A model generated the notes under the pieces. The model saw only the letters and a program-made list of their open reading frames with translations. It was not told the origin of the DNA and did no database searches. From UHGV virus genome UHGV-0178594: a DNA stretch of 64,000 bases; one strand, 5' to 3'. This stretch comes from a virus. Shown in pieces: positions 7,422 to 51,494 of this stretch; position 1 is the stretch's first letter, and each line of letters opens with the position of its first letter. The position numbers and the translations under genes were made by a program.

Positions 7422-8045
7422 ATGAAGGATGGTTTTGTGAAGTTAAGGGTTTTGGGAGCAGTGCTCGCGGTTATATTGGGGGGAGTTTCTCTTAATGCTG
7501 CCTATGCAGGCGCATTACCTGCAAAGTATGAGGCTGGGCTGAAGGTGTTGCGAAACGCCAAAACAAACTATACGCCTGATGAAGTTTCAAACTATTGCCA
7601 AAAAGAAAATATCCCACTGAAACCTGTAGAGCCATTCTTTAAAAGCAACATTGAGTTCTGTGTATTTGCGTATGCAGCAGATGAAACAGGAAAGGCCATA
7701 CAAAAGACAGGGTATTCCACCAAAGACACAATGTCGGTGTTAAGTAACGGCGTGTTGCAGTTTGAGCTTTATCGTCAGCAAGGAATGGGAGATCTATTGC
7801 AGCCTTTGTATGGTCTAGCATTGGTGCCGGAAGGTCAGCAGTTTCTGATCAAAAAAGGCCTCATGAGGCAGGAAGATGTAGCTGGTTTCGATGCCATCGT
7901 TGCCTATGAAAAACAACTCAAGGAACAGCGCAATAAAAAACCATCTGCCTCATGCGTGCAAAGCAAAACAGCAGAATACAGCGCAGTGGCTGGGCCTTTA
8001 GCCCCACAAATGGCAGAGCAATGGTGTAAACAATACGGGCAATAA
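7422..8045 (+). CDS. secreted protein (signal peptide)
   Basis: Start at internal ATG giving MKDGFVKLRVLGAVLAVILGGVSLNAAYA signal-like N-terminus. Confidence 0.5.
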   Translation: MKDGFVKLRVLGAVLAVILGGVSLNAAYAGALPAKYEAGLKVLRNAKTNYTPDEVSNYCQKENIPLKPVEPFFKSNIEFCVFAYAADETGKAIQKTGYSTKDTMSVLSNGVLQFELYRQQGMGDLLQPLYGLALVPEGQQFLIKKGLMRQEDVAGFDAIVAYEKQLKEQRNKKPSASCVQSKTAEYSAVAGPLAPQMAEQWCKQYGQ

Positions 8046-8065
8046 GTTACGCAGCGGAGGCAGAA

Positions 8066-8458
8066 TTGAAAAGATTAGCTATTGCTTTATTGGCAGCTTT
8101 CCCTTTGATCGCTCACGCCGGGAATTTACAAGTGAAGTGCGGTAGGTTTGATATAAAAATCTATCCGAACGCCATATTTCTGAATGGGAATAAGGTCGAT
8201 AACGCGCACCGGAAAACTGAATCTGACGTAATGAGCTATGTGTTCCAGGAGTATGCCGAGATGGGGGGAACTTACACGTTGTACTCGCTGGATGTTCCTT
8301 CTCGCGGTGATATGACGTTATCTCATCAATGGCAGAACGCCGATGGCGAAGCTCTGCGCGAGGTTAAAACAGAAAAATGTGGCACTTTCCATTCTTTTAA
8401 AGGGAAAGCGCCCAATGTTAAATCTACGCTTGAAAAACAGCGTGCTGGTGAGCTTTAA
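8066..8458 (+). CDS. small secreted protein (signal peptide)
   Basis: MKRLAIALLAAFPLIAHA signal-like N-terminus; 130 aa. Confidence 0.5.
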   Translation: MKRLAIALLAAFPLIAHAGNLQVKCGRFDIKIYPNAIFLNGNKVDNAHRKTESDVMSYVFQEYAEMGGTYTLYSLDVPSRGDMTLSHQWQNADGEALREVKTEKCGTFHSFKGKAPNVKSTLEKQRAGEL

Positions 8459-9973: not shown

Positions 9974-10785
9974 ATTGGCAGCCTCCTTTGACTAAGTTAA
10001 GGAGCTACCGCGTGAGGTTCCAATCTCAATGGCGGTAGCACTGACTGGGTTGGAACTACCGGCGTCAAAGGGAACCGGCCTGCCTTTCGGCAGCCCAGCC
10101 AGCACTACCATTGATCTCTGAGCTAAACGCTAAGTATGGCTGTGCGATGGCATGACACAAAAAAAGACGCGTTCGGCGTCTGTGTCGCCTTTGACATTAT
10201 CCGGGGTTCCAATCCCGGCACCCGTTTTTCTAAGGTGCCGTAGAAATATACCCCACGATAATGCCAGGGCGCAACTGTGTGTTTTCTTATGCTTTTCTTT
10301 TCTTCTTTTGGGCTTGCTTGCAGGCGTAGGCCATTGCTTTAGCTTTCACTTCATCCAGCTTTCCGGTGATCACTTCTTTTCCGAGAGTGACAAACCAGTC
10401 ATAGCAACCGCCAGTGATGTTCTGGATTTGAAAGTTGAGGTAGCGAACGGTCATTTTGACACCCCCAGCGCGAGTAAAGAATGCAGATTATCGCGTGAGT
10501 GGCGGACAACGAGTGATGGGAAAAGACAGTAGCTGTTCATAGTGTAGTGACTCCTTGCTTTCGGAGCCGCCATCGACTGTTCCACGGTCTGGTGGCGGCG
10601 CAATAAAGGTTGGAACACCGTGAGTCAACGGGGGCTTTTCAGCCACCTATATTGCACCGCCATTGGTATGGCGGCGGCAATCATACGAAAAACCAAACGG
10701 TTTGTCTCAAAAAGTTGACCGGTGTACCAATCGGTTGTGAATGTACAACGGCGAATCTCACAATTCAACTTAAAATGTTAGAAAA

Positions 10786-11361
10786 TTAATTTATCAATTC
10801 AGTCACCATCTGATACAACGTCATTTCATCAGCATTGTGCCGCCTGAAATCTGCTTTGCCGCCTATTTTTCCATCAGCATGAACAGGAACCAACCAGGGG
10901 TATTGCTCGCGGATCTCTGCTGGCGCTGCGTGTTGATGGTGCCATTTACACAAAGGGAGGACGTATTTATGCGCGTTCTCTGCTGTTCTCCCGAAGATGT
11001 GGTGCAGGGATACCACAGGGCTATGCTGTCCGTGCATATGGCAGGCAATGCAGGGGAGAGCACCGATGGCAGTTTGTATCCGGCGCTCATCTGCTGTGAG
11101 TGTTCTGCCTTTCAGGCCGCGTGACGCGCGAGTTTTTTTGACAGGAGCAGAAGCGGCCTTCTCTTTTCTTCGCTGTTCATATTGCTTCGCTTTTTCAATT
11201 TTCTTTTGCCGATATTCAGGCGATGCGGCTTTTTCTCGCGCACGCTGCTGCTGGCGTTGAGCTTGCTGAAGACGCTTTGCCCTTTGTTCCTCCCGCCATT
11301 TCGGATCAGCCAGTTTTTGCAGGGCTTTTTGTGTCTGTTTCTCCCAATAGCTTTGCTTCAT
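10786..11361 (-). CDS. Ref-like HNH endonuclease (recombination enhancement function)
   Basis: Cys/His cluster LPCIACHMHGQH...LPLCKWHHQH; ORF track begins at TTG 11403, ATG at 11361 preferred; 34-bp palindrome immediately upstream. Confidence 0.55.
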   Translation of the reverse strand: MKQSYWEKQTQKALQKLADPKWREEQRAKRLQQAQRQQQRAREKAASPEYRQKKIEKAKQYEQRRKEKAASAPVKKTRASRGLKGRTLTADERRIQTAIGALPCIACHMHGQHSPVVSLHHIFGRTAENAHKYVLPLCKWHHQHAAPAEIREQYPWLVPVHADGKIGGKADFRRHNADEMTLYQMVTELIN

Positions 11362-11404
11362 AGAAATACCCGGTTTGTCTACATCGCCGCTATGGTTGAT
11401 CAAA

Positions 11405-11438
11405 TGTGTTAGAAAATCAAAATTGATTTTCTAACACA
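11405..11438. promoter_or_regulatory. 34-bp perfect palindrome, bipartite operator candidate (GTTAGAA-N14-TTCTAAC)
   Basis: TGTGTTAGAAAATCAA-AA-TTGATTTTCTAACACA in divergent promoter region between Ref-like gene and rightward early operon. Confidence 0.6.
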
Positions 11439-11633
11439 AAATGAAGATACTTTTTTTCAGACGCTATATCAGGAGGTCATGATGCTTGTCGCAATAAGTG
11501 CAATCCACCAGCAATCCGGTACAGAAATTGGGTTGCTATATGCCCTGTTTTTCACTGTCCTGGCGTTGTTTGAGCTGGGCATTGAACTCTTTGCTCTCAT
11601 CAACTTTTGCGTAACGTTCCTGGGGAAACTTTG

Positions 11634-12245
11634 ATGTCAAAACGCATTATGAAAATTTACATCGCGGGTCCGATGACTGGTTATCCCGACTACAACCGCA
11701 CAGCGTTTTTTTCGAAAGCAAAAGAGCTGATGGAGGTAGGGCATATTGTTCTGAATCCGGCGCTGTTACCTGCTGGCCTCTGCGAGAGCGAATACATGGA
11801 TATTTGCCTTGCAATGGTGCGTTCGGCTAATGCGGTCTATTTGCTCAAGGGGTGGGAGGAATCAGTTGGCGCTCGTGCAGAGCACGAGCTGGCTCAAAAG
11901 CTGGGGCTGAATGTAATTTATGAGTCACCAACCAACATTGAATGCCAGGTTGCTCCGCATATTTACCGGGAACTGGTCAATGCACTGCGTGATATCGCTG
12001 CTGTATATCACGGCACAGAACAGCTTCGTGAGCGTTTAGCCCATACCATTTCCTATTACCTGTCTGCATCTCATGAGCACAAGCTCCGTCAGAAGGTAAT
12101 GATCAAATTTATCATGAGGTTATCGAAATCCCTGGCAAACGCCGATCCAAAGAATCCATTACCGAAAGTGGCAATGAATTACCTGAAGTCCTGCAACATT
12201 GTTTCTGAAGATGGCGTTCTTTTGGTTAGAAGGAGTTCTGCGTGA
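11634..12245 (+). CDS. DUF4406 / nucleoside 2-deoxyribosyltransferase-like protein
   Basis: IYIAGPMTGYPDYN motif near N-terminus; first gene of long rightward operon. Confidence 0.55.
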   Translation: MSKRIMKIYIAGPMTGYPDYNRTAFFSKAKELMEVGHIVLNPALLPAGLCESEYMDICLAMVRSANAVYLLKGWEESVGARAEHELAQKLGLNVIYESPTNIECQVAPHIYRELVNALRDIAAVYHGTEQLRERLAHTISYYLSASHEHKLRQKVMIKFIMRLSKSLANADPKNPLPKVAMNYLKSCNIVSEDGVLLVRRSSA

Positions 12246-12592
12246 GCTGGCGGGGATGGGGAAGGGCAGAAATCATGATACTCCGCCAGTGCGCCGGGAC
12301 TATGACAGTCGAGGGTATTGGGAGACTGATCGGGCGTACCGGTGGTGCTGTCAGGACTAAAGCGCGGCAATTGCGGATCAGCATGATTCTGAAAGGTGAC
12401 TTTCACCAGTCAGCCAAATACCGGCAGAGCGATATAGAGCTGGCGCGGCAGCTTCATCAGTGTGGCGTTCCCCGCCGTGAGATCGCAGAAAAACTCGAAA
12501 TGCCCCTGGGCATGATTAATCAGTACGTTTATTTCGAAAGGAGAGTGCATGAAGTCAGAAGGTTTAACGCCCGCACAACTGGCAGAGCGTAA
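12242..12592 (+). CDS. hypothetical protein
   Basis: 116-aa ORF, ATGA-coupled to upstream gene; overlaps next ORF by 44 nt. Confidence 0.4.
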   Translation: MSWRGWGRAEIMILRQCAGTMTVEGIGRLIGRTGGAVRTKARQLRISMILKGDFHQSAKYRQSDIELARQLHQCGVPRREIAEKLEMPLGMINQYVYFERRVHEVRRFNARTTGRA

Positions 12593-13058
12593 CGCTGAGT
12601 ATGTAACGGAAATTTCCCGACTTGAGAAAGAGCGCGCGGCGCTGGCGGCAGAGAATGCGACACTGAAGGCGATATGTGAGGACCGCCGCACGTTCATCAT
12701 GAATGGCGTGCTGCTTGGTTTTATCCAGATGCCAACAGCGGAAATAGATCCAGCTCTTGAAACAATTCGTGTCGCCCTATCACCACAAAATCCTACCCCT
12801 GCGACCGACGCTTTCTTGGATGAAATGAAGACTGAAGCACGCAAGGAAGGGGCTTACTTTGTGGCGAACAGAATGTTGGCTGCCTGGAAAGCTGGTTTTA
12901 TTGATGATACTGCGAAGAACGCCGCGGATATTGCCCGGATGATTCTTACCTCTACTGATTTTATGGCTAATGCGCCGGAAGGAGATTTTGACCGCTCATT
13001 CTCTGATGGCGTTCTCGAAGATATCGCTGAACAGCTTCGTAAAGGAGTCATCCAGTGA
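12549..13058 (+). CDS. Ead/Ea22-like protein
   Basis: Shares ERAALAAENATLKA coiled-coil and C-terminal IAEQLRKG module with paralogs 14099, 18256. Confidence 0.55.
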   Translation: MKSEGLTPAQLAERNAEYVTEISRLEKERAALAAENATLKAICEDRRTFIMNGVLLGFIQMPTAEIDPALETIRVALSPQNPTPATDAFLDEMKTEARKEGAYFVANRMLAAWKAGFIDDTAKNAADIARMILTSTDFMANAPEGDFDRSFSDGVLEDIAEQLRKGVIQ

Positions 13059-13777
13059 GCGAAATTAATTACCAGGCACTGCGTGAGGCGGCGGAACGTG
13101 CAATTCCAGCAATGGAACGCCTGTTAATGTTGCCAGCTGATGATGATTTGTTAAGTGAACAGGAACTTAAAGATTACGGTGTGGATATTGATGCGCTCAA
13201 CGCCTTCAAATTTCTGGCCGGACCAGAAACCGTGCTGGCACTACTGGATGAACGGGAAAGAAACCAGCAATACATCAAATCTCGCGACCAGGAGAACGAG
13301 GATATTGCGCTAACGGTAGGGAAGCTGTTAATCGAAAACGGTCAGCTTGTTGCCGATACGCTACGCCACTTAGCTGATAACGAAATCGACTCTGATTATT
13401 TTGCTATCACCTCAACTAATGAGAACGGTACTGAAATTGATCATGAGATGTCTATTACCGATTACGCACTGCAAGCTGCCGGAACTGTAGACGAATTGGT
13501 TGCGGCGCTGGAAGCCGCAAAATCAAAACTCAACGAGCAGCGTGAATATTACGAGGGAGTAATCGCGGATGGAAGTAAGCGCATAGCAGAGTTAGAAAGT
13601 GGTTCTCAGGCACAAAAGTTAGTTGAAGCAATCATTGTTGCGATAGAAAACGAACAGGAACGTCTTTTTGATGAAGATTACCTAATGGATTCGAAAGAAT
13701 GCATTGACGTAATTCGTGAAGAAGTAAAGCGATGGAATGATTCCCGCGCCGCTGGCATTCGCATCAAAGGAGAGTGA
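13055..13777 (+). CDS. Ead/Ea22-like protein
   Basis: GTG start in conserved junction; N-terminus [14 protein letters not shown] shared with 19190 ORF. Confidence 0.55.
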
Positions 13778-13778
13778 G

Positions 13779-14102
13779 ATGACCACATCGCATTCTGCAA
13801 TCACCCAGGAAAAAGTATTTCGCTTGCTCGAACGTCTGGAGGCGCTCGCCACGGAGGAGGATATATCCCCGGAGATGCTGGTCGAGTGCAGCCGTGTGAT
13901 ATTGCGTCGCAAGAACGACATCGCGCGGCTGACATCTGGCGCACAATCCGTATCAGCCAGTCCAACGCTTTATTGCAGCTTCTGCAACAAATCCCAGCAC
14001 ACCGTTAAAAAGTTAATTGCCGGGGACAACGTTTTCATCTGCAACGAGTGCGTGAAAGATTGCAACAACATTATCCAGGAAGAGCAAAGGGAATCAGCAT
14101 GA
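13779..14102 (+). CDS. ClpX N-terminal zinc-binding-domain-like protein
   Basis: C-terminus [36 protein letters not shown] closely resembles ClpX ZBD ([20 protein letters not shown]...ICDECV). Confidence 0.6.
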
Positions 14103-14809
14103 AATTTTCCAAATTCTCGGAGTTGGTGAATCGTATTTTGTCCAACAACCACAGCCATCGTCGCGATATGGATGTAACGATCGTTGTTCATTCGCCTGGT
14201 CGCATCGGTTCAACACCATCAGTTGAGGTTCAGTCAATTCAGGTGGGTTTTGATTGGGATGCCGGGAAAGTGCTGATTTTCCCAGCACAGCCACTGACCA
14301 CGCTAACACCAGAACAGATTACTGATATTACGGATAGTGTGCGCAAAGGTCAGTCTTGGCACGCATATCAGGAATACAAGAAGCATAAAGAGCAGTTGGA
14401 AAAATTGTCGATTGAACTGGATGCTGCAAGACGGCGCATTACAGAACTGGAGAGCGAACGCGCGGTGCTGGCGGCGGAGAATGCGGAGCTGAAGTCTGTG
14501 CACCCTCAACCATTCGGAGCTGAGATGATGAAGGCTCTTGATGCGTATGAGAAGCATCAGGATGAAGTGCCAGAGACTGGAATGCTCAATGCATTTTTCA
14601 TCTTGCGCGACAGTATCCGTGTTGACACCCCAGCCACCGATGCTTTCCTGGCTGAAGTACGTGCGCAGGGCGTGGATATGGCTCGTAACGCGATGATTGA
14701 TTTTGTCGATGGTGAAGTTGGGCCAAACAAGAACGTTCCGGGGCTGATTAGAGGCGCAGAGATATGCGTAAGTATTGCTGAACAGCTTCGCAAAGGAGGC
14801 AGCCAGTGA
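14099..14809 (+). CDS. Ead/Ea22-like protein
   Basis: ATGA overlap with upstream stop; [13 protein letters not shown] and [11 protein letters not shown] modules. Confidence 0.55.
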
Positions 14810-15081
14810 ATATCGACACGACAATAACGATCGATACGCTCCTAAATACCGGTCTGGCACTTCTCGGTTGGCTTTACATCATGTCCCGTACATGGCGATG
14901 GCTGGGTTCCATTTTCCTAAAACAGTGGAAAAAACGGCGCAAACAGGAACTACGTCAGAAGGCATTAGAAGCGTTCTATGACGCATTTGAGCTTAGCCGC
15001 ATTGAACCAGGTACAACAGCCAGGATAGCGACAAAAGGCGACCTGATGATAGTGATGTTCAGACAGGAGAAAACAAAATGA
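14806..15081 (+). CDS. small membrane protein
   Basis: 91 aa with hydrophobic segment LLNTGLALLGWLYIM. Confidence 0.45.
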   Translation: MNIDTTITIDTLLNTGLALLGWLYIMSRTWRWLGSIFLKQWKKRRKQELRQKALEAFYDAFELSRIEPGTTARIATKGDLMIVMFRQEKTK

Positions 15082-15302
15082 CAGAACAGACGATGACAAA
15101 TCGCGAACTTGTTGATGCCGCGATTGAACTTGCTGGCGATTTTTATTCCATGTTGGGTTACGAGCATCGACCTGGTTTTAAGTATTGGGAGTCACCGCAT
15201 CCGCAAGAACAACAGGTGTTTGAAATGGCCTGCCGTGCTTTTGAGGTTATTCGCGGTTCTGATGTGATGGAGGCCGTTGCCGACTTGGAGGATGAAGAGT
15301 GA
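15078..15302 (+). CDS. hypothetical protein
   Basis: 74-aa ORF, overlapping stop/start with neighbours. Confidence 0.45.
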   Translation: MTEQTMTNRELVDAAIELAGDFYSMLGYEHRPGFKYWESPHPQEQQVFEMACRAFEVIRGSDVMEAVADLEDEE

Positions 15303-15610
15303 GCATCATTAAAGAAATGCCGGTAGAACGTGATGAATATGGCTGCTGGACACATCCGGAGTATGAAAAGTTTTGCGCAGGTCGTGAATATATATCCACT
15401 GAGGAATTTGACGCCTGGATGAAGGAAAATAATCTTCAGTGGACTATTCGCAGTATGGATGAAGATCATTTTAATCTGGACGCAGATGGTCCCGATATTG
15501 CCGCCTGGGAACCAGAGCGACCAGAGGGCGAAGGATGGTTTGTTGGCTCTATTCATGACACTGAAGATGGCCCGGTTTGTATCTGGCTGCGGGAGAAGGT
15601 TGCCGCATGA
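15299..15610 (+). CDS. hypothetical protein
   Basis: 103-aa ORF in coupled operon. Confidence 0.45.
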
Positions 15611-16293
15611 CCCAGGCGCTGCATGAAGTGAATTTATATAGCCGTATTGATGGTTCAGGCTACAGAAACATATGGGTTGTTGGTGATCTGCATGGTTGCT
15701 ACACCAGATTGATGTCTGAACTTCATCGTGTGGACTTTGACCCGACACAGGATTTACTGATATCGGTTGGCGACCTTATCGATCGCGGCACCGAAAATGT
15801 TGAATGCCTGGAGCTATTGCAGATGCCCTGGTTTCGGTCGGTTATGGGAAACCACGAGCGATTAATGATCGATGCGTTAAGCCCCGCAGGCAACGTGAAT
15901 AACTGGCTAATGAATGGCGGCCAATGGTTCTTCATGCTGGACGCTGATCGGGAAATATTAGCCAGGGCGCTGGTGGAGCTGGTAAAGCGTCTGCCCTATA
16001 TCATTGAGTTGAACACCGGGCATGAAACTATCGTTATAGCCCATGCCGACTATCCTGATAACGAATACCAGTTTGGTAAACCTGTTAGCGATCTCAATGT
16101 TACCTGGCGGCGTGAGCGATTTTATGACGCGGTTGATGGTGTTGGTGGAATGATCACTGGTGCAGATAGCTTTATTTTCGGGCATACGCCAGTAAACAGC
16201 CCGAAATCTTTCTGGAACCAGCACTACATAGACACTGGCGCGGTTTTTTGCGGAAATCTGACGCTAAAGCAGGTGAAGGGAGGCCAGCCGTAA
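15607..16293 (+). CDS. Ser/Thr protein phosphatase (lambda PPase / NinI-like metallophosphatase)
   Basis: Motifs GDLHG, GDLIDRG, GNHE characteristic of PPP-family phosphatases; ATGA-coupled start. Confidence 0.8.
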
Positions 16294-16324
16294 TCCTGAA
16301 CACATCGTTTATGCACTCAAAACC

Positions 16325-16356
16325 GTGTTAGAATATTGATTTTAATTTTCTAACAT
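16325..16356. promoter_or_regulatory. palindromic operator candidate (GTTAGAA-N14-TTCTAAC)
   Basis: GTGTTAGAATATTGATTTTAATTTTCTAACAT between phosphatase gene and 16398 ORF. Confidence 0.5.
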
Positions 16357-16397
16357 ATTATTTTACCGCTCGGAACAAAACAGAGTCGGTATACATT

Positions 16398-17393
16398 ATG
16401 AGTGCAATAATCACACCTCATTTCGTAAACGGAGCTGGTGTGGCTGTCTTTCCGGTAGACAAGCCCACCAGCAACTACATTGGCGCAGGTCGCCGTTTCA
16501 TTATCTCTCCACTTCCGCGCGAACAGGCTGAAAACACGCCAGATGGCGTAGTGGATCTGAACTATTCGCTGGTTGCCAACCAGTCTCTGAAAGCATTTTT
16601 TCAAAGCGAGCGCGTATTTAACGCATTAGGCGGTGAAGATTCGCTTGTTCATTGGGTAAGTTCCAATATCCACGATTGCCAGGCGCACGATAAGCGCGAT
16701 TGCAGCCACCAGCTAACCACTCATTTCTATAACGGCTCTGCCGTTCGCCTGTGCTGGAAGCATGATGCGGAATACATGATGAAGGGGTACGGCAAGCTGG
16801 ATGACCAGTTATCCCTAAATCGTGCCAACTGGGTTATGAACTGGGCTGCGAGCGAGTTAAAACTACCGCCAGAACGCGATCTGAGCATGGTTGAACTCAC
16901 TTTTTGGGCCATTCGCCGGAATCTGAAAGACGAGCTGCCAGATGAAGCCGGTCGCATTGCATTTTGTCAGCCAAAACAGGAAATCCCTACCGGCACACTG
17001 AAAGAATCGGATATCACCTGGGAGCACAGCACCCGTGAGCTGGTGGACATAACCGCAGAGCAGATCGTCAACCTGTCTGTAGATGAGGATTCCGGCCTGC
17101 TGTATATGCGCCGACCAAAAGCGGTTCTCGGTAAAAGCCCGGCTTATCTCCGGTTTGTGATTTCTCGTCCGTGCATCGGATGCGGAGGCAAAGTTAATCA
17201 CCCGTTCATGTACCGCGCCCGCTCGTTAAACGAACACGATCGCTGGGCCGTTCCTCTTTGCGATGAATGCGCCAGAAGCGCAGAAAACGATGTCCGGGCA
17301 TGGGAAAAAGCACATGGCATACGCCTTTACGTAGCCGCCAACCAGCTTTTCGACTTCGCCATCGAGCGCGGAGTGATCACGTTCAATAACTGA
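16398..17393 (+). CDS. hypothetical phage protein with C-terminal Cys cluster
   Basis: 331 aa; CIGCGG...PLCDEC zinc-ribbon-like motif; palindromic site 16325-16356 upstream. Confidence 0.5.
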   Translation: MSAIITPHFVNGAGVAVFPVDKPTSNYIGAGRRFIISPLPREQAENTPDGVVDLNYSLVANQSLKAFFQSERVFNALGGEDSLVHWVSSNIHDCQAHDKRDCSHQLTTHFYNGSAVRLCWKHDAEYMMKGYGKLDDQLSLNRANWVMNWAASELKLPPERDLSMVELTFWAIRRNLKDELPDEAGRIAFCQPKQEIPTGTLKESDITWEHSTRELVDITAEQIVNLSVDEDSGLLYMRRPKAVLGKSPAYLRFVISRPCIGCGGKVNHPFMYRARSLNEHDRWAVPLCDECARSAENDVRAWEKAHGIRLYVAANQLFDFAIERGVITFNN

Positions 17394-17397
17394 TGGA

Positions 17398-17976
17398 GTG
17401 GATCAAAAAATGAAAGAACGCGGGATGATTTTTAACGATGAGATGGTCCGGGCAATTCTTGGCGGGAATAAAACACAGACTCGCAGGATTGTTGAAGAAA
17501 AATTCTATGGACGAGCAGTTGCCGCAGAGTTGCTTGCCAAGCATTGTCCATATGGTCAACCGGGCGATCGTATTTGGGTTCGCGAAACCTACCGGGTACA
17601 TGGCAAAGCGACGGACGTCGCAACGCTGGTTTATCGCGCAAGCGTGCGTAACTCCTGGACAGAACAAACGCACCGGGTTCCGGTCGATGTTTGTAATAAA
17701 CCAGTATCAGAAAAGTGGACGCCATCAATTCACATGCCGCGCTGGGCATCGCGCATTCTTCTGGAAATTACCGACGTGCGTGTGGAACGGCTGCATGACA
17801 TGAGCGAGGCAGATGCTAAAGCAGAAGGCGCAACTCCGGCGACGTACAAGATTACGCCACCTGAAGCTGTTTATCGCGTTGGTTTTGGTGATATCTGGCG
17901 CAGTATTTACGGGCAGGATAACTGGCTATCTAACCCGTGGGTATGGGTAATCGAGTTTAAGCGCATTCAGGAATAA
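17398..17976 (+). CDS. hypothetical phage protein
   Basis: 192-aa ORF; start uncertain (ATG at 17398, 17410 or 17425). Confidence 0.45.
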   Translation: MDQKMKERGMIFNDEMVRAILGGNKTQTRRIVEEKFYGRAVAAELLAKHCPYGQPGDRIWVRETYRVHGKATDVATLVYRASVRNSWTEQTHRVPVDVCNKPVSEKWTPSIHMPRWASRILLEITDVRVERLHDMSEADAKAEGATPATYKITPPEAVYRVGFGDIWRSIYGQDNWLSNPWVWVIEFKRIQE

Positions 17977-18059
17977 ACCGTGAGTATGCATCAAATCGTC
18001 AGTTTTTCAGGTGGACGAGCATCGGCCTGTCTCGTTCATCTGTTCGAAGAGGTAGTGGA

Positions 18060-18263
18060 ATGACAATCGTAAAAACCCATACCGGTACCGTGATCACCAA
18101 AGATGGCCCGCAGGTAAAAAAACTGCACCAAACAGAGCGGATGTGGGTCGTTGGCAAAAACGAGTTTTACCACAAAGAAACTGGACGCCGCCATTTTGCA
18201 GAAAATACGCGCCGCCGACTGCTGTTAGACACCATCAAGCCTATCGAGGTGAAGCATGTTTAA
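18060..18263 (+). CDS. hypothetical small protein
   Basis: 67-aa ORF. Confidence 0.4.
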   Translation: MTIVKTHTGTVITKDGPQVKKLHQTERMWVVGKNEFYHKETGRRHFAENTRRRLLLDTIKPIEVKHV

Positions 18264-18495
18264 ACAGAACGAAAAAGCTATCGCTCAAATTGCTGATTAT
18301 ATCCCGCGTGCGTGCCGAGGTATGCAGTTGCAGGAAGCCAAAGCGCGCCTGGAGAAAAAAATTGCGCTCTATATTGATGACGGCTGTGATGCCGCCGTTC
18401 TTAACGCGGCGTTCGCACCAGCTCTTAACCGTCATACTCGGGAGTCTTTTTTTTCGTGCATCGCAGCGCAACTCCGCAAAGGAGGCAACCAGTGA
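18256..18495 (+). CDS. Ea22-like C-terminal module protein
   Basis: Ends ...CIAAQLRKGGNQ, same C-terminal module as other Ea22-like ORFs. Confidence 0.4.
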   Translation: MFKQNEKAIAQIADYIPRACRGMQLQEAKARLEKKIALYIDDGCDAAVLNAAFAPALNRHTRESFFSCIAAQLRKGGNQ

Positions 18496-18758
18496 GTGAG
18501 TCAAAATGCCAAATTAATGGCAACAAGATAGAACCGTGCGCGGCGTTGACGCAATCCCTGGAACATGACGCTGAATACACGACGCGAAAAGGTCTGCTGA
18601 AATACAAAATCTATAACCATGCATTAATTCATTCACAAGACCTGATCATGCTGCGGTCAGGCGAGTTTTCTAAATCGCCGATTCGAATTTCATTTTGCCC
18701 GTTCTGTGGTGAAAGTCTGAAAACGTGGGAAGCGGAGGCAACCAGTGATCAAAATTAA
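18492..18758 (+). CDS. hypothetical protein with zinc-ribbon-like motif
   Basis: GTG start in conserved junction; ...ISFCPFCGESLKTWEA. Confidence 0.4.
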   Translation: MSESKCQINGNKIEPCAALTQSLEHDAEYTTRKGLLKYKIYNHALIHSQDLIMLRSGEFSKSPIRISFCPFCGESLKTWEAEATSDQN

Positions 18759-19203
18759 CTATCAAGAACTGCGCGAGGCGGCGGAACAGGCAACGCAAGA
18801 TGAATGGGTAGCATATATTTTGCCGGGTCATAACGGCATTTATCCTGCGCGCACGTCTGAGGGTAGGCATTGCGGATACTTTATTGACTGGCCTGGTATT
18901 GATGGGCTGAGAAACGCTGGTGCCAATGCCCGTTATATCGCGGCTATCCCACCAAAAGTTGCTCTGGCGCTACTGGGCGAAATTAAGCGCCTGGAAGACG
19001 CAAATATTGATGCCATGTGCCGAATTGCAGAACTGGAGAGCAATCGCGCGACGCTGGCGGCGGAGCAGCGTATTCAGATTGCAATAAATGAACTGGTTGC
19101 TCTGGCCCCGCGCCTGGATAAACGAGCGATGGATGCACTCTCTGTGACTGTGGTGCACCTGTATAAACTGATTAATAAGGAGGCAACCAGTGAGCGAAAT
19201 TAA
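18745..19203 (+). CDS. Ead/Ea22-like protein
   Basis: N-terminus (V)IKINYQELREAAEQ; internal ELESNRATLAAEQ. Confidence 0.5.
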   Translation: MIKINYQELREAAEQATQDEWVAYILPGHNGIYPARTSEGRHCGYFIDWPGIDGLRNAGANARYIAAIPPKVALALLGEIKRLEDANIDAMCRIAELESNRATLAAEQRIQIAINELVALAPRLDKRAMDALSVTVVHLYKLINKEATSERN

Positions 19204-19888
19204 TTACCAGGCACTGCGTGAGGCGGCAGTGAAAGCAACGTGGGGAGACTGGGACTCATATAAACCACACCGTGGCGCACGTGGTTATGAGGTCCGACTA
19301 AGTAGTCAGGCCATTGCGCAACACGTTCTGAAAAACAACGCTGAATTTATTGCTGCCTTTAATCCCAAGGTTGCTTTGGCACTACTGGATGAGATCAACG
19401 CATTAGAGGAAACGCGTATCAACGATGTTTGCCGTATTGTGGAACTAACAAAACAACTGGAGTCGGCAAAATCAAAACTCAACGAGCAGCGCGAGCATTA
19501 CGAGGGAGTAATCGCGGATGGAGGTAAGCGCATAGCAGAACTGGAAAAACAATGCGCTGAATCGGAGCGAAAAGCATTAAGCAACTTTGAAGAGTGTGCT
19601 GCGATGGCTGAACGTATCGAAGAGTTGGAGCAGGCCAACACAAGACAGGACGCCAATATAAACCACCAGCAGGAGGGCGTGACTCAATCAGTCACCCGAT
19701 ACATATATCACTACAACGCAGTGAATGGTTCTGACTCTATGTCTGGAATTGCGCGGTTAACTTTCATGATCAAATCACAATCTGACCTTGACGCACTTAA
19801 AAGCGCACTTAGCAAGGTTGGTGGTTTCCGTGCAAAAGCAATTACATCTCTTTCATATCTTGGGTGTGAGGAAGATAGCAAACGATGA
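19190..19888 (+). CDS. Ead/Ea22-like protein
   Basis: N-terminus [13 protein letters not shown]; shares [25 protein letters not shown] with 13055 ORF. Confidence 0.5.
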   Translation: MSEINYQALREAAVKATWGDWDSYKPHRGARGYEVRLSSQAIAQHVLKNNAEFIAAFNPKVALALLDEINALEETRINDVCRIVELTKQLESAKSKLNEQREHYEGVIADGGKRIAELEKQCAESERKALSNFEECAAMAERIEELEQANTRQDANINHQQEGVTQSVTRYIYHYNAVNGSDSMSGIARLTFMIKSQSDLDALKSALSKVGGFRAKAITSLSYLGCEEDSKR

Positions 19889-20418
19889 AAGAAGGATTTA
19901 AAGATAATTCAGGTGCAGCGCAAAACACTGGAGAAATCATTGAGGCATTTAATGGGGAGGAAATGCCCACTTTATTCAGAAAAGAATATCCGCGAAAGAG
20001 TAGAGCACTAGAATTGCTGTTTATCATTCTGTTTTTCGTGTTGCTGATACCAATAGCCTCAATATTAGTGACTGTTCTAATGGGGAAAGTATTTGAACCG
20101 TTAGTTGAACTGTATATCGATATAGTGTGGACCCCATTCAGGAAGCTACACAATAAAATTAACCCACATAAGGAAACAGATATGGCAACTTTGAAAAAAG
20201 AAGATCGTTTTACCAAAAAACAAATCGCCGAGGCAAAAATCCTCGATAACAACGGAACCTACTTCATCAACGGTTCCATTCTTCCTGTTTATATCAATGA
20301 AGATGGAGACACTTACCTTATTGAAGAGTACGAAAAAGGCGAGCCGAGCGAACACCTCATTAAAGATTTGTTCGCGGATGGCGTTATTGTTGCTGTTAAT
20401 CCGATTGGCTACAACTAA
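19885..20418 (+). CDS. hypothetical AT-rich membrane protein (possibly two small genes)
   Basis: Hydrophobic segment LLFIILFFVLLIPIASILVTVLMG; second possible start at MATLKK (~20182). Confidence 0.35.
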   Translation: MKEGFKDNSGAAQNTGEIIEAFNGEEMPTLFRKEYPRKSRALELLFIILFFVLLIPIASILVTVLMGKVFEPLVELYIDIVWTPFRKLHNKINPHKETDMATLKKEDRFTKKQIAEAKILDNNGTYFINGSILPVYINEDGDTYLIEEYEKGEPSEHLIKDLFADGVIVAVNPIGYN

Positions 20419-20428
20419 AGCATAAATT

Positions 20429-20941
20429 ATGACCAGTATTACCAGAGAACAGGCCAAGAAAATTATTGAAGCTGCCGATGAGGTTATTAGTGCGCTTGCC
20501 GGAACTAACGAGGATGTTCACCCTGGTAGCGATAACATGCTACGTCTGTGGGATGACCTGAATGACCGTTACGCGCCGCCGGAAGTTGTGCGTGAGCTGG
20601 CGCGTATCGTGCTGGCATCGCTGGAAGCGGAGCCTGTAGCGTGGCGATATCGCTACGTGAAAAAAGGCGTTACGGACTCTCAGGGGGAGCCGTGGGTTGG
20701 TGACTGGAAATATGTACCGACAAAAGAGGATTGCAACGACAGGCCGAGCTATGAGATTCAGGCCTTATTCACTGCCCCGCCAGTCCCGGTGACATCAGAA
20801 GGACTGGTTAAAGCCGTGCGTTTCTATGAACAAGTTAAGCGTGAAAATCCGCCAGTCGAAACCGGAGCATGGAAAGACGCGATTGACTGGGTGCTCAAAG
20901 AGGCCTGCCAGGTTGTAAACACTGGCATCAAAGGAGACTGA
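20429..20941 (+). CDS. hypothetical protein
   Basis: 170 aa; shares LASLEAEPVA...PPVPVT module with 21149 ORF. Confidence 0.45.
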   Translation: MTSITREQAKKIIEAADEVISALAGTNEDVHPGSDNMLRLWDDLNDRYAPPEVVRELARIVLASLEAEPVAWRYRYVKKGVTDSQGEPWVGDWKYVPTKEDCNDRPSYEIQALFTAPPVPVTSEGLVKAVRFYEQVKRENPPVETGAWKDAIDWVLKEACQVVNTGIKGD

Positions 20942-20942
20942 T

Positions 20943-21152
20943 ATGGCTATTGCCGCAAGTTACACCATGCATCTCTATTGTGATTGCCTCCAGTGTACAG
21001 ATGGCAAATATAAGTCGCCAGACTTCGGTGAGTATATCGGTACGTCATGGGCTGGCTGTGCAAAAGAGGCGCGCAAAGATGGCTGGCGAATAAGCAAAGA
21101 CAAAACGCGTGCTTTTGCGCCCGGGCATAAAGTTTTGAGGATTAACAAATGA
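20943..21152 (+). CDS. hypothetical small Cys-rich protein
   Basis: 69 aa; CDCLQC...C. Confidence 0.4.
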   Translation: MAIAASYTMHLYCDCLQCTDGKYKSPDFGEYIGTSWAGCAKEARKDGWRISKDKTRAFAPGHKVLRINK

Positions 21153-22213
21153 CCACTTTAACCGACAAAGAACTGATTAAAGAAATCAAAGAGCGAATCG
21201 GCAGCCTGGACGTGCGAGACAATATTGAGCGCCGTGCTTATGAAATTGCTCTGGCATCGCTGGAGGCAGAGCCAGTGGCAAAAATTATAGCTCACTACCC
21301 ATTAGGAATTGACGTAGGCAAACAAAAGTTCGTACAGGCCATTGGAGAGCTTCCTGACTTTGGAGGATATCTATTCGCCGCTCCACCTGTGCCGGTAACA
21401 CAGGCTAATGTCGCGCAAGCAATTGAAAATCTTAAGCAGAAGTTAGTGGAATGCAATCGCTATAACTACTGCGCAGATGCAGTTAAAGATGTTGAGGATG
21501 CCAGCCGCGTCTTGGCACTCCAAAATCAAAATATGTCAGCACCGATAACGCAGGAGGCCATTGAAAACGCAATTGAATATATCCGCAGTATTGCTTTTCA
21601 CATCGATGAAGACGATTACCACGGCAAGCATATTGCGTATTTCATGCGACAAGCACTGGTCTGGCTGGAAGGGCATTCATGCAGCGACGACAGACAGGAT
21701 AAAGCCGAGAATCAACCAGTACGCGGTAACCAGGCTGCCGAATCCAATCGCGGTAATGAGTGGACCGGCAATCCTGATATTGATAACGCCATCATCATGC
21801 TTGACCGCATAGATACGGCGGAAAGTTACGATGATGACCGTATTGAGGCTGTTAAGGCTGTTTTGCGTAGACTGGCAGGCAACTCTCCGGTAATTCCGGA
21901 TGGTTTATCCACGGTATGCGCTGAGGCTTATCAGGTTGTAGGAGTTATGGCAGATGCGCTTGGTGTATTCGGTGATGCAGCAGTACAGAAAGTTCTGGAT
22001 AACCTGTCACAGCAAAAACTTGTTCACAGAGATGTGCTGCCGTTCTCGCTTCCGGTAACTCCGGATGGTTGGGTTATGGTTCCTAAACAGGTAACGCCGG
22101 AAATCAGCAACGCGATAAACGTTGTGGGTCAACGCTGTACATGCGGAAATTGCTCTCAGCGGTTGTGGGATTTATTACTCGACGCCACACAGCAAGGAGT
22201 TAACCGTGGCTAA
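21149..22213 (+). CDS. hypothetical protein
   Basis: 354 aa; ATGA-coupled; N-terminal module paralogous to 20429 ORF. Confidence 0.5.
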   Translation: MTTLTDKELIKEIKERIGSLDVRDNIERRAYEIALASLEAEPVAKIIAHYPLGIDVGKQKFVQAIGELPDFGGYLFAAPPVPVTQANVAQAIENLKQKLVECNRYNYCADAVKDVEDASRVLALQNQNMSAPITQEAIENAIEYIRSIAFHIDEDDYHGKHIAYFMRQALVWLEGHSCSDDRQDKAENQPVRGNQAAESNRGNEWTGNPDIDNAIIMLDRIDTAESYDDDRIEAVKAVLRRLAGNSPVIPDGLSTVCAEAYQVVGVMADALGVFGDAAVQKVLDNLSQQKLVHRDVLPFSLPVTPDGWVMVPKQVTPEISNAINVVGQRCTCGNCSQRLWDLLLDATQQGVNRG

Positions 22214-22389
22214 CCTGCAACTTATCCTCAAAGGTGAAAAGATTTGAGGATTCGCATCATTAATAACACCGACAAGCATCCGGATGATTATTTGGATTGC
22301 TCGTTAGCAGAGCGCGTGGAATTGATATAAGAGAATCTCCGCGCATCGGCAACACACAGCTAAATATGTTCGCAATAAAGGGTAAATCA

Positions 22390-22791
22390 ATGGCTAAATT
22401 TCGGAGAACTATTATTTTTCTGGCAATGTTATCTGCCTGCCATTTATCACATGCATCGGTTATTGTTGCAACCGCCGCAACAACGGCAGCAATTAGCGCC
22501 TCAGCCGCAAGCGAGCAGGAGCAACGCACTGCAATCAATGCATCCGCAAATACTACCACTGTAGCAGTCACGCAAGATAAGCCAAATATAGGCTTTGTTA
22601 CTTGCGGAAAACGGTATGGAGAGACGGTCGGTTCTCTTGGTTGCGCAGTGTGGCATGACGAACGAGCAGAAATTCCGTGGAAATCATGGCCTGGTTACAT
22701 TCTTGGCGAAAAGATACCCACCAGCTATGAAGTAAATGCTATTTCGTTCGACCAATATAACAGAGTCGCAACGGTCTACTTTTCTTATTAA
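22390..22791 (+). CDS. secreted protein (signal peptide)
   Basis: Internal start gives MAKFRRTIIFLAMLSACHLSHA signal-like N-terminus. Confidence 0.4.
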   Translation: MAKFRRTIIFLAMLSACHLSHASVIVATAATTAAISASAASEQEQRTAINASANTTTVAVTQDKPNIGFVTCGKRYGETVGSLGCAVWHDERAEIPWKSWPGYILGEKIPTSYEVNAISFDQYNRVATVYFSY

Positions 22792-22797
22792 CACGGA

Positions 22798-23097
22798 GTG
22801 ATTATGTGGCGCGGTAATAATCATGGCAGAAGCCATATGATACTTACCGAATATAAGCTAGACCACAAAACCAATAAATCACGCTCAGTATATTTGCTCC
22901 GGCACAATAGCCGCGTAAGGAATACCGTGCTGGAGCAATATCTGACCGTTGAAATGGATAATTTCGGGAATTTCAAGCCAACAATATCGCTTGATGATTT
23001 CCCTCGTGGTTTAAGCGAAAGAGAAGCAATGCTGAAATTAGCAGAATGGCTACAAAGATTGAGCATTGTTATTGAAGATAACTGGAGTCAACCATAA
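22798..23097 (+). CDS. hypothetical protein
   Basis: 99-aa ORF. Confidence 0.4.
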   Translation: MIMWRGNNHGRSHMILTEYKLDHKTNKSRSVYLLRHNSRVRNTVLEQYLTVEMDNFGNFKPTISLDDFPRGLSEREAMLKLAEWLQRLSIVIEDNWSQP

Positions 23098-23273
23098 TGA
23101 AAAACAGAAAGAAATTTTGGATTACTTTTTTGTTTGTATGCCTTTGCGGTTCATTTGTTTTGTTGGCTGGTGGTGTTGAATGGGGAACGATGGGATGTGG
23201 AGTTGGGAGTGGCTTTACGCTTCTTGCAGCCTGGGTTATCGCTGGCGTTCAGTCTGGAGGAGGGTATTACTAA
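23097..23273 (+). CDS. small hydrophobic protein (58 aa)
   Basis: Hand-found ORF below track cutoff, MKNRKKFWITFLFVCLCGSFVLLAGG...; start overlaps upstream stop. Confidence 0.3.
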   Translation: MKNRKKFWITFLFVCLCGSFVLLAGGVEWGTMGCGVGSGFTLLAAWVIAGVQSGGGYY

Positions 23274-23352
23274 GTAATTTTATTACCCCCTTCATAACGG
23301 ATATCACTCTCGTGATAACGGATATTCCAATTTTGATAACGGATAAAGCCAA

Positions 23353-23562
23353 ATGAGGCATTTTTTAAGGCTGGCATTTGTTCTGGCGCTATTTGCTCCT
23401 CCGGCTGCGATGGCTGGAGAACAGCAGCACTGTGTAACTGAATCAGAGAATCTTGTAATAGTCACTCAATGCGATGACGGAACGGTGACCGTGGTTAATG
23501 TACGAGATAACCGTGTAGCCGTGTGTCGTAAAGGCGAATCATGCAAGGAGATAAAGCTATGA
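23353..23562 (+). CDS. small secreted protein
   Basis: MRHFLRLAFVLALFAPPAAMA signal-like N-terminus, Cys-rich mature part. Confidence 0.4.
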   Translation: MRHFLRLAFVLALFAPPAAMAGEQQHCVTESENLVIVTQCDDGTVTVVNVRDNRVAVCRKGESCKEIKL

Positions 23563-36950: not shown

Positions 36951-37026
36951 TGGTGGCCCCTACCGGACTTGAACCGGTGACCGTGCGATTATGAGTCGCC
37001 CGCTCTAACCACTGAGCTAAAGGGCC
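36951..37026 (-). tRNA. tRNA, anticodon CAU (tRNA-Ile2/ileX-like or Met)
   Basis: 76 nt, GGCCCTTTAGCTCAGTGGTTAGAGC...CTCATAA...GGTTCAAGTCC...CCA; close to E. coli tRNA-Ile(LAU). Confidence 0.8.
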
Positions 37027-37455
37027 AGATTACTGTTAATTACGCTTACGCTTTTTGCCAGAACCGCGTAAGGCTTTTGCCGCTTGCTCTACCCCGTATG
37101 CAACCACCAGCAGAAACAATAATGTCCACTCCGGGTTTTTATCGGCAAACGCCCAAAAATCCATCACTTGCAGCCACCTTTTAAGACAAAACGCCATTGC
37201 TGTTAGGTTGCGGTGCCGGGTGCCTCCCGGTGACGTTAACCAGTTAACAATTAACGCCGGATCACTTATGGATTCTCGTTACGCCAGTAAAAAGACCACC
37301 TTTACTGTTTTAACTGTTCCGCGTGCGCTTAGCCGCATTCACCGCAATGGTAAGAGCATTTGGCTGACTGGGCGGCGATGACGCCTGTACGCATTTGGTG
37401 ATCCGGTTCTGCTTCCGGCATTCGCTTAATTAGCCAAATACTCTTAACGTTGCGC

Positions 37456-37542
37456 TGGCGGAGAGTAATGGAATCGAACCATCATCGCTTGCGCAATGGG
37501 ACGGTTTTCAAGACCGCTTGAGCACCATGCTCCCTACTCTCC
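37456..37542 (-). tRNA. type II tRNA, anticodon UGA (Ser candidate), atypical D-arm
   Basis: 87 nt; acceptor GGAGAGT/ACTCTCC, loop CTTGAAA, long variable arm, T-loop TTCGATT, encoded CCA. Confidence 0.5.
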
Positions 37543-37647
37543 AGTGATTGTGATGGTCGGTGCTGAACTCCGACACAGGGTTGTAGCAAGCCCCGCAAAG
37601 CGCGCACTACTGTAGTTGCGGCACATCAGCCTGTGCATTCATCACAA

Positions 37648-37725
37648 CGGTAAGGGTACTTCGTAGGGATTCGAACCCTCTGCCAAGCTCGGCGATCTCC
37701 GACGTCGCAAAATACCCTTACCTGT
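37648..37725 (-). other. tRNA-like fragment / degenerate tRNA
   Basis: Contains GGGTTCGAATCCC T-arm inside an 8-bp closing helix but no canonical D or anticodon arm. Confidence 0.3.
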
Positions 37726-37730
37726 TGTGT

Positions 37731-37806
37731 TGGTGCCGGTTAACGGACTCGAACCGCTGACATCCTGCTTACAAGGCAGGCGCTCTACCAACTGAGCTAA
37801 ACCGGC
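37731..37806 (-). tRNA. tRNA-Thr (anticodon UGU)
   Basis: GCCGGTTTAGCTCAGTTGGTAGAGC...CTTGTAA...GGTTCGAGTCC...AACCGGCACCA. Confidence 0.8.
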
Positions 37807-37810
37807 AATT

Positions 37811-37897
37811 TGGTGGGGAGTGATGGAGTCGAACCATCCGAGTCGCAATGACAGTAGATTTACAGTCTACCCCGCTACCCCTACGGACTAACTCCCC
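37811..37897 (-). tRNA. tRNA-Tyr (anticodon GUA), type II
   Basis: 87 nt; anticodon loop CTGTAAA, long variable arm, T-loop TTCGACT, CCA end. Confidence 0.75.
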
Positions 37898-37902
37898 TAA
37901 AT

Positions 37903-37979
37903 TGGCGATGGTGGGTGGATTCGAACCACCGACCGACAGCTTAGAAGGCTGCTGCTCTATCCTACTGAGCTACACCATC
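37903..37979 (-). tRNA. tRNA-Arg (anticodon UCU)
   Basis: GATGGTGTAGCTCAGTAGGATAGAGC...CTTCTAA...GGTTCGAATCC...CACCATCGCCA. Confidence 0.75.
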
Positions 37980-51167: not shown

Positions 51168-51494
51168 AGTTACGGCCTCGTAAGTTGATAAACAACCTGC
51201 GACCCGCTGTCAAACAGGTGGCAGGACGTGACAGGGTTGACAGACTGGCACTTACGAAACCAGCAGGCCGAAGCCTCCCCATCACGCCCCACCATAATTC
51301 GGGCGTAACGTGGTTTTACGGACACAAAAATACCGCAATATCGGAAATGTGCGGTTGTCCGCGTAAGTATTCAGGCTGTCAAACCTGGTCGCAGAATTTG
51401 CTACGACGGCATGAATATAAGCCTGAACATTAGAAAGATCAACAGAATTTTTATCAAATGCTGTTTTTTAGTGACAATGTAAATCATACATTCT

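Follow-up and report, generated by a model that had tools for sequence, protein, structure and literature searches.

Since 1978 it has been debated whether phage mosaicism arises by homologous exchange at linkers or by random illegitimate joints that are filtered by selection, and convincing linkers are, to our knowledge, said to be rare. For HK620, the abstract of the work of Clark et al. from 2001 in J Mol Biol 311:657 reportedly mentions seven boundary sequences. According to PMC3029335, Susskind & Botstein (1978) and Clark et al. (2001) put forward boundary or linker sequences of lambdoid phages as focal sites for homologous recombination. Here, we analyze a stretch of 64,000 nucleotides of the virus genome UHGV-0178594 (the window), in which a 17-nt sequence, linker-1 (AAGGAGGCAACCAGTGA), recurs at five gene junctions within an accessory-gene operon of a D6-like phage-plasmid of the P1 family. 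As judged from sequence comparison, linker-1 is probably a translational-coupling linker that doubles as a short homology island for the exchange of gene cassettes.

Like the boundary sequences, linker-1 is short and conserved, is located at gene boundaries and has unrelated flanks on either side in different genomes. It differs from them in separating single small accessory genes rather than large functional modules, in doubling as Shine-Dalgarno sequence (SD), start and stop used in two frames, and in being shared with P1/D6-type phage-plasmids. A literature search for GGAGGCAACCAGTGA, Ea22 mosaicism and ribosome-binding site (RBS) or linker sequences, which did not cover Clark et al. (2001), returned no earlier description of linker-1, and the population paper on D6-like plasmids contains no discussion of the operon region. 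Linker-1 would best be regarded as a new instance of the 'boundary sequence' concept of Susskind and Botstein and of Clark et al., not as a new kind of system.

Three further systems are close to this locus. Relaxed homologous recombination by Rad52-like phage recombinases produces mosaics via short or diverged homology (De Paepe et al. 2014; PMC3945230). Red-beta's minimal segment for efficient pairing (MEPS), 23–27 bp, matches the size range of the islands formed by linker-1 between cassettes that are unrelated on both sides (median 28 nt, interquartile range 20–47 nt), and in an Stx phage the same cassettes adjoin recT/exo. The regions considered in that work measure at least 100 bp at 67–98% identity, whereas the linker core comprises 17 nt located exactly at a translation start. 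In the mycobacteriophages Island3 and Brujita, recombination between repeats of ~50 bp explains a difference in gene content, and the authors liken these repeats to boundary sequences (PMC3029335). Here too, gene content differs between close relatives via short repeats, although Island3/Brujita represents a single event in one phage pair and linker-1 recurs in more than 100 combinations. Finally, integron cassettes resemble the present genes in being small, promoterless members of one transcription unit that are gained, lost or reordered at a recurrent junction element. In contrast to attC and attI, linker-1 has no inverted-repeat structure and no fixed crossover point, its exchange appears to be homology-guided, and it is not a member of the integron family; the annotations of the operon in 14 elements, namely the window, phage D6 and 12 related plasmids, include no integrase.

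A motif search of the window allowing up to three mismatches retrieved exactly five sites, each with at most two mismatches. Shuffled sequences gave an expectation of 0.14, and none of 100 shuffles reached five copies, which bears out the initial annotation in its claim that the same sequence is found at five gene junctions. All five copies, labelled J1 to J5, are on the + strand at a gene junction, with the GTG start of the next gene at motif position 14:

13042..13058 (+): J1, AAGGAGTCATCCAGTGA; upstream open reading frame (ORF) ends ..LRKGVIQ at TGA; GTG at 13055 (+) starts an Ea22-like gene
14793..14809 (+): J2, AAGGAGGCAGCCAGTGA; upstream ORF ends ..LRKGGSQ; GTG at 14806 (+) starts a DUF4752 gene
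18479..18495 (+): J3, exact copy (AAGGAGGCAACCAGTGA); upstream ORF ends ..LRKGGNQ; GTG at 18492 (+) starts a small zinc-ribbon-like gene
18732..18748 (+): J4, GCGGAGGCAACCAGTGA; upstream ORF in the +1 frame ends ..WEAEATSDQN at TAA 18756-18758; GTG at 18745 (+) starts an Ea22-like gene
19177..19193 (+): J5, exact copy; upstream ORF in the +1 frame ends ..NKEATSERN at TAA 19201-19203; GTG at 19190 (+) starts an Ea22-like gene

The consensus is composed of a perfect 7-nt SD (AAGGAGG), a 6-nt spacer (CAACCA) and a GTG start with an embedded TGA. In four of the five copies AAGGAGG, the 6-nt spacer and GTG are present inside the upstream ORF; J1 has AAGGAGT. A GTG overlapping the TGA stop of the preceding gene had been described for every junction. 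This GTGA overlap is real at 13042, 14793 and 18479 only, since at 18732 and 19177 the upstream gene is read in the +1 frame and stops at a TAA 11 nt downstream, resulting in a 14-nt overlap with the next gene. PGAP annotation of the related plasmids also lets the genes start at the linker GTG, and in the 14 elements all 46 linker-1 copies are located at gene junctions with the GTG start inside. In a wider sample of 165 junctions (see below), GTG is the start in each, while the upstream frame is that of ..RKGGNQ-stop at 92, exclusively the other frame (..KEATSE..) at 34, and ambiguous at 35. The use of the motif in two upstream frames implies that it is conserved at the DNA level.

Where linker-1 is followed by GTGAGTGA, GTGAGTAA or GTGAGCGAAATTAA (e.g., 18492-18499 and 19190-19203), a second-frame stop is found two to five codons after the GTG. 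With such a stop near the GTG of many linker-started genes, upstream ORFs in either of two frames are terminated; other linker-started genes have no second-frame stop, so this feature may be due to chance. In addition, the end of the ppp-like phosphatase gene (16276-16293, ..KGGQP-stop, AAGGGAGGCCAGCCGTAA) matches the linker-1 region at 13 of 18 positions, with no start codon after it. This site may be a decayed linker or a chance resemblance.

Recombinant junctions in related genomes, which had been set beforehand as a test of the recombination claim, were found when the window region was compared by syntenic BLAST chains with phage D6 and the 12 related plasmids (13 loci). Of 168 internal homology-block ends, 33 lie within 20 nt of the five linker copies. 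As these intervals make up 2.4% of the region, this corresponds to an approximately 8-fold enrichment, with ten ends at J2 (14793) and nine at J3 (18479). A further 36 ends lie near other gene boundaries (9.1% of the region), nine of them at 13754-13779, the site of a second linker described below. No block end among the 168 is located at the ATGA/GTGA junctions 15078, 15299 and 15607, which lie inside a block that is intact in all loci but one (L011), which misses the first few bases. The initial annotation had also considered that RBS constraint alone, in the absence of breakpoints, might explain the similarity of the junctions. This is not so, as breakpoints are present at them.

The clearest rearrangement concerns plasmid NZ_CP104667 (L003), which in its flanks shares 99.6% identity with the window but carries an extra 635-bp cassette between two direct linker copies. 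Up to ..CCAGTGAGCGA, the window sequence is that of the left copy in L003, and beyond this point that of the right copy, which places the crossover inside the linker (J1). Across the 14 elements, the linker joins four types of upstream gene end to six types of downstream gene, and, according to the joint, the upstream gene of the 17398 family has one of three ends (..KRIQGATSE, ..KRIQGGNQ or ..KRIQE before the stop). Moreover, gene 9084-9815 of L003 combines the 5' part of 18745-19203 with the 3' part of 19190-19888 in a hybrid whose crossover lies in an 83-nt internal patch, at a place where the window has two tandem paralogues. In NZ_CP021537 (L008), positions 7673-8199 show the left-hand cassette of the window (12801-13327) sitting in the right-hand cluster. 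Together, the L003 hybrid and the L008 placement indicate cassette movement between the operon's two clusters.

The exact 17-mer is present in at least 120 IMG/VR contigs. Among the matches listed, 122 distinct junctions link 22 upstream to 32 downstream clusters in 78 combinations forming 40 four-gamete squares. Inclusion of the plasmid copies yields 165 junctions, 30 × 34 clusters, 102 combinations and 67 squares. Two control overlapping junctions of the same operon, treated identically, gave 0 squares versus 40 for linker-1 among the IMG/VR matches listed; the control 17-mers have at least 120 IMG/VR matches each, mostly by chance in unrelated phages, so raw counts are uninformative and the reticulation of the flanks was compared instead. 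Among 5426 complete E. coli genomes, 457 contain linker-1 together with the adjoining N-terminal patch (81 nt), 391 of the places being chromosomal and 136 on plasmids.

The transcriptional setting of the linkers is the following:

11634..22213 (+): polycistronic accessory-gene operon of the D6-like phage-plasmid, delimited by ORFs and by synteny with phage D6 and the 12 plasmids

It consists of ~21 small genes, tightly packed and mostly joined by 4-nt ATGA/GTGA or 14-nt overlaps, and is bordered by ref (minus strand) on one side and a pmgU-like gene on the other. No sigma-70 promoter-like site was found on the + strand at 10500-23500, and such sites are depleted in this interval (4 versus 17.1 ± 4.6 in shuffles). 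This depletion is consistent with a single long transcription unit that would rely on internal translation signals. In an operon lacking + strand promoter-like sites, each cassette needs translation signals inside the genes upstream of it. Many cassettes of the operon are also found in Stx and other lambdoid phages; in Stx phage VT2phi_272, for instance, the block formed by the NinC, 18060 and 18256 genes directly follows recT-exo.

We propose that linker-1, located between small accessory genes of one long early operon, would act as a predicted translational-coupling signal, both here and in the equivalent recT/exo-proximal operons of lambdoid prophages. Being nearly identical before and behind dozens of unrelated genes, it would form a homology island of 17–57 nt, extended at times by the 'LRKGG' tail (~20 nt) or the Ea22 N-terminal leader (~45 nt), at which homology-guided recombination could swap, delete or duplicate whole cassettes. 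Exchange between genomes would be catalyzed by Red-beta/RecT-type annealases or RecA, and the five direct copies within an operon would recombine with each other through unequal crossover or slippage. Each crossover would leave the SD and start of the downstream gene intact and would supply the upstream gene with a nearby stop, a TGA in one frame and often a further stop just downstream in the second. Because SD and start are kept and stops are close by, recombinants would be viable and would accumulate, and one translation signal common to many cassettes would thereby provide an identity patch near the minimal efficient pairing length. The participating enzymes, actual translational coupling and any selection for shuffling are features that we infer. 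Of the 'built-in recombination linker' seen in the initial annotation, the recombination part has strong comparative support from the breakpoints, the L003 indel and the reticulation. The term 'built-in' is not supported; linker-1 appears to be foremost a strong translation-initiation and coupling signal, of which the role in recombination may be a by-product.

Several observations weigh against this proposal. More than half of the block ends (99 of 168) are located away from linkers and gene boundaries. Many lie right after the coiled-coil patch shared by several ORFs (12658, 14498 and 19065) or at an internal patch (13327), and others are joints without evident homology, at 17484, at 17722 and at a deletion in a ninC-like gene with 7-nt microhomology. 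This places the linker, as a favoured site, among several points of exchange. In addition, the 13 comparison loci are kin to each other, so that a binomial p-value for the enrichment overstates their independence and is indicative only. In pairs of junctions that share the upstream but not the downstream sequence, similarity stops at +17 to +19 in 45% and, in about one third, where the N-terminal patch ends, and in pairs that share the downstream but not the upstream sequence it starts at −20 to +4; as the junctions were gathered by motif search, a similarity edge at the motif is partly built in. Finally, a perfectly identical stretch of 17 nt falls short of the published MEPS values (those for Red-beta given above and 31–34 bp for RecA; PMC3945230), and the adjoining, partly conserved tail or leader is probably required for exchange to be efficient.

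The joints without evident homology also speak for illegitimate recombination followed by selection for intact genes (the Hendrix model), in which the linker would be a passenger, as the 3' end or 5' leader of a gene family. Likewise, control junction 15299 joins one upstream gene to differing downstream genes, and boundary sequences are held to be absent from most mosaic joints (PMC3029335). This process clearly operates elsewhere in the operon. As an account of linker-1, however, it appears unlikely, because the linker is present in both partners of the L003/window indel with the crossover inside it, because it is seen with a shared upstream and different downstream genes as well as the reverse (40–67 squares among the matches listed versus 0 for the controls), and because random joining would not recreate one 17-mer in more than 100 combinations.

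Alternatively, selection might act on protein modules, a functional C-terminal peptide and an N-terminal helix, the DNA motif being merely their coding sequence. The tail ..(A/E)QLRKGG.Q indeed recurs on many proteins, and the N-terminal helix is part of the Pfam family Ead_Ea22. Nevertheless, at least 34 of the 165 junctions read the motif in the other frame, the KGGNQ tail is carried by proteins whose bodies are unrelated (e.g., ..NKYLNAMWRKGGNQ), at least ten gene families other than Ea22 start at the linker, and Ea22-type N-termini also occur behind other leaders, including the diverged leader of lambda ea22 itself (AGAGAGGTTCGAAGTGA), which is not linker-1. Among 30 Ea22-type leaders, 15 are linker-1 variants with one to three mismatches and eight are of the lambda type, exact-copy loci being under-represented, which biases the former count downward. 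We regard selection on protein modules as distinctly improbable.

Less plausible still is independent convergence on an optimal ribosome-binding and start context, without common descent or recombination. AAGGAGG is an ideal SD, a 6-nt spacing is near optimal and overlapping NTGA junctions are common in the operon, yet conservation extends to the spacer, to GTG in place of ATG (165 of 165) and to the TGA, none of which is required for initiation, other junctions of the operon have a quite different SD and spacer, and the control junctions are not reticulate. Taking into account also the use of the motif in two frames, we rejected pure RBS convergence as very improbable. That a dedicated enzyme (a site-specific recombinase or a homing/HNH endonuclease, for example) acts on the motif as integron integrases do on attC is scarcely credible and was likewise rejected, for although HNH-type proteins are encoded nearby (Ref, 10786-11403, and the DUF968/pdcB-like protein, 16398-17393), the linker shows no dyad symmetry, conserved hairpin or other conserved RNA structure around it (consensus fold −0.9 kcal/mol with a positive covariation term, i.e., no covariation), no recombinase is consistently adjacent to it and there is no integrase, DUF968 is lacking in lambdoid contexts, and crossovers also fall in adjoining patches rather than at one fixed phosphodiester bond.

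A second sequence in the same operon, linker-2 (CATCAAAGGAGA(G/C)TGA(G/T)ATG, at 13762-13781 and 20926-20945), is found in two copies:

13756..13781 (+): CATTCGCATCAAAGGAGAGTGAGATG; ..IRIKGE-stop tail of an Ea22-like gene plus the SD/ATG of a ClpX-zinc-finger gene
20920..20945 (+): CACTGGCATCAAAGGAGACTGATATG; between genes 20429-20941 and 20943-21152

Besides the nine block ends at the first copy, three loci show block starts at 20930. Linker-2 also makes up the end of lambda ea22, which is identical to the first copy. In IMG/VR, 114 junctions with GCATCAAAGGAGAGTGA combine 17 upstream with 25 downstream clusters in 71 combinations and 149 four-gamete squares, making linker-2 (GCATCAAAGGAGAGTGA(G/T)ATG) as reticulate as linker-1. 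All Ea22 proteins have been reported to end in a '+GE' tripeptide of unknown significance (PMC7093339). Its simplest explanation, judging from the nucleotide sequence, would be that it is the translated SD linker of the next gene. The conserved tails KGGNQ and +GE would then be explained as translation of the ribosome-binding linker of the following gene, rather than as functional peptides.

The first copy of linker-2 marks the start of the ClpX-zinc-finger gene: 13779-14102 encodes a 107-amino acid (aa) protein that is essentially the N-terminal C4 zinc finger of ClpX (PF06689, 9e-18) without the ATPase. The gene is kept in most related plasmids, and its product could be a decoy or modulator of substrate or adaptor binding by ClpX.

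Ea22 consists of an N-terminal region, a tetrameric coiled coil and a C-terminal domain (PMC7093339, PMC10834534, PMC8614690). Its C-terminal domains are described as variable, its gene as split in 933W (ea22/L0065) and its region as 'highly mosaic' (PMC7093339, PMC8614690, PMC10834534). The family is also ascribed a pro-lysogenic function. At least six ORFs of the operon had been presented as an array of Ea22-like cassettes with interchangeable N-terminal, coiled-coil and C-terminal modules, and six ORFs with shared patches were identified:

12549..13058 (+): ORF of 169 aa with coiled-coil patch (12596-12653) and C-terminal tail; no Pfam family
13055..13777 (+): Ead/Ea22-like gene, 240 aa, from linker-1 to linker-2 (..GIRIKGE-stop); PF13935, 3e-34, 119 bits
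14099..14809 (+): ORF of 236 aa with coiled-coil patch (14422-14479) and C-terminal tail; no Pfam family above threshold
18256..18495 (+): ORF of 79 aa ending IAAQLRKGGNQ, sharing tail and linker only, according to patch comparison
18745..19203 (+): Ead/Ea22-like gene, 152 aa, with N-terminal and coiled-coil patch (19008-19065); PF13935, 4e-18, 66.8 bits
19190..19888 (+): Ead/Ea22-like gene, 232 aa, with N-terminal patch and a 91-nt patch in common with 13055-13777; PF13935, 5e-21, 76.3 bits

The sharing of modules holds at both the DNA and the protein level, each patch being present in three ORFs. At the DNA level, the N-terminal patch is located at 13044-13127, 18734-18817 and 19179-19262, the coiled-coil patch (58 nt) at the positions listed, and the patch of C-terminal tail plus linker at 13022-13058, 14773-14809 and 18459-18495; the 91-nt patch is found at 13508-13598 and 19457-19547 with 89% identity. 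The Ea22-like nature, on the other hand, was substantiated for only three of the six ORFs, which pass the gathering score of 27 bits for Ead_Ea22 (PF13935); 12549-13058, 14099-14809 and 18256-18495 fail it and share short patches only. An NCBIfam search of the six ORFs returned no useful names. The protein of 13055-13777 aligns with lambda Ea22 along its entire length (E = 1e-26), and both end in ..GIRIKGE. By sequence, the three Ead_Ea22 ORFs appear to have the same N-terminal helix and coiled-coil segments as lambda Ea22. Unlike the exo-xis region of lambda, the present setting is a plasmid prophage with three gene copies, tandem or dispersed, interspersed with non-Ea22 cassettes. The gene 18256-18495 is found after ninC in Stx phage VT2phi_272.

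Upstream of the latter gene, a degenerate junction precedes the remains of a deleted gene:

17967..18060 (+): degenerate junction resembling a linker (CAGGAATAAACCGTGAGT), then the 5' remnant of a PAPS-reductase (NinC-like) gene

The remnant keeps only about the first 27 codons (VSMHQIVSFSGGRASA..). Compared with plasmid NZ_LR890273 (L002, 8701-9490), ~789 bp are deleted, the joint overlapping by only ~7 nt. A true linker-1 copy occupies this position in other plasmids, where it is joined directly to the preceding gene.

A lambdoid prophage, the kind of element named for comparison in the initial annotation, is not what carries the region. Near-full-length DNA similarity together with P1-type immunity and maintenance markers identifies the host element as a D6-like phage-plasmid of the P1 family. 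Plasmid NZ_LR890273 from E. coli matches it at 99.2% identity, with 90% of the region covered, and the top phage match is phage D6 (91% identity, the matching part comprising 47% of the region). Neighbouring genes of P1/D6 type include a C4 antisense RNA, icd, ant and ref upstream, and further ppp, a pdcB-like DUF968 gene, a pmgU-like gene, hot, humD and phd/doc.

Additional features of the element were observed. The Ref of P1 is a RecA-dependent HNH nuclease, and the gene for a Ref-family recombination-enhancement nuclease (10786-11403, minus strand) lies directly upstream of, and divergent from, the hypervariable operon. Two matches to C4 antisense RNA were obtained, one at 10028-10238 (77 bits), adjoined by an isrK-like match, and one at 51214-51420 (70 bits), adjoined by a match to the c4 a1/b1 target. 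From these matches, the element appears to carry two antisense immunity modules of the P1 immI type. A cluster of five tRNA genes (Met, Ser-TGA, Thr-TGT, Tyr and Arg-TCT) is located at 36951-37979 on the minus strand.

A more far-reaching possibility, which we consider rather doubtful, is that linker-1 and linker-2 constitute an evolved universal adaptor, kept by second-order selection, that makes promoterless accessory genes plug-and-play. If true, the adaptor would offer an SD and start for what follows, multi-frame stops for what precedes and identity for phage annealases, it would create a recombinase-free cassette pool of chromosomal lambdoid prophages and P1/D6-type phage-plasmids, and it would represent the homologous-recombination counterpart of the integron.

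The abundance of linker-1, in 457 of 5426 E. coli genomes and in more than 100 combinations, makes it a concrete and experimentally tractable test case for the old question of how phage mosaics arise. It also ties chromosomal lambda-like prophages to P1/D6-like plasmids via a shared cassette pool, one that adjoins genes influencing lysogeny in Shiga-toxin phages.

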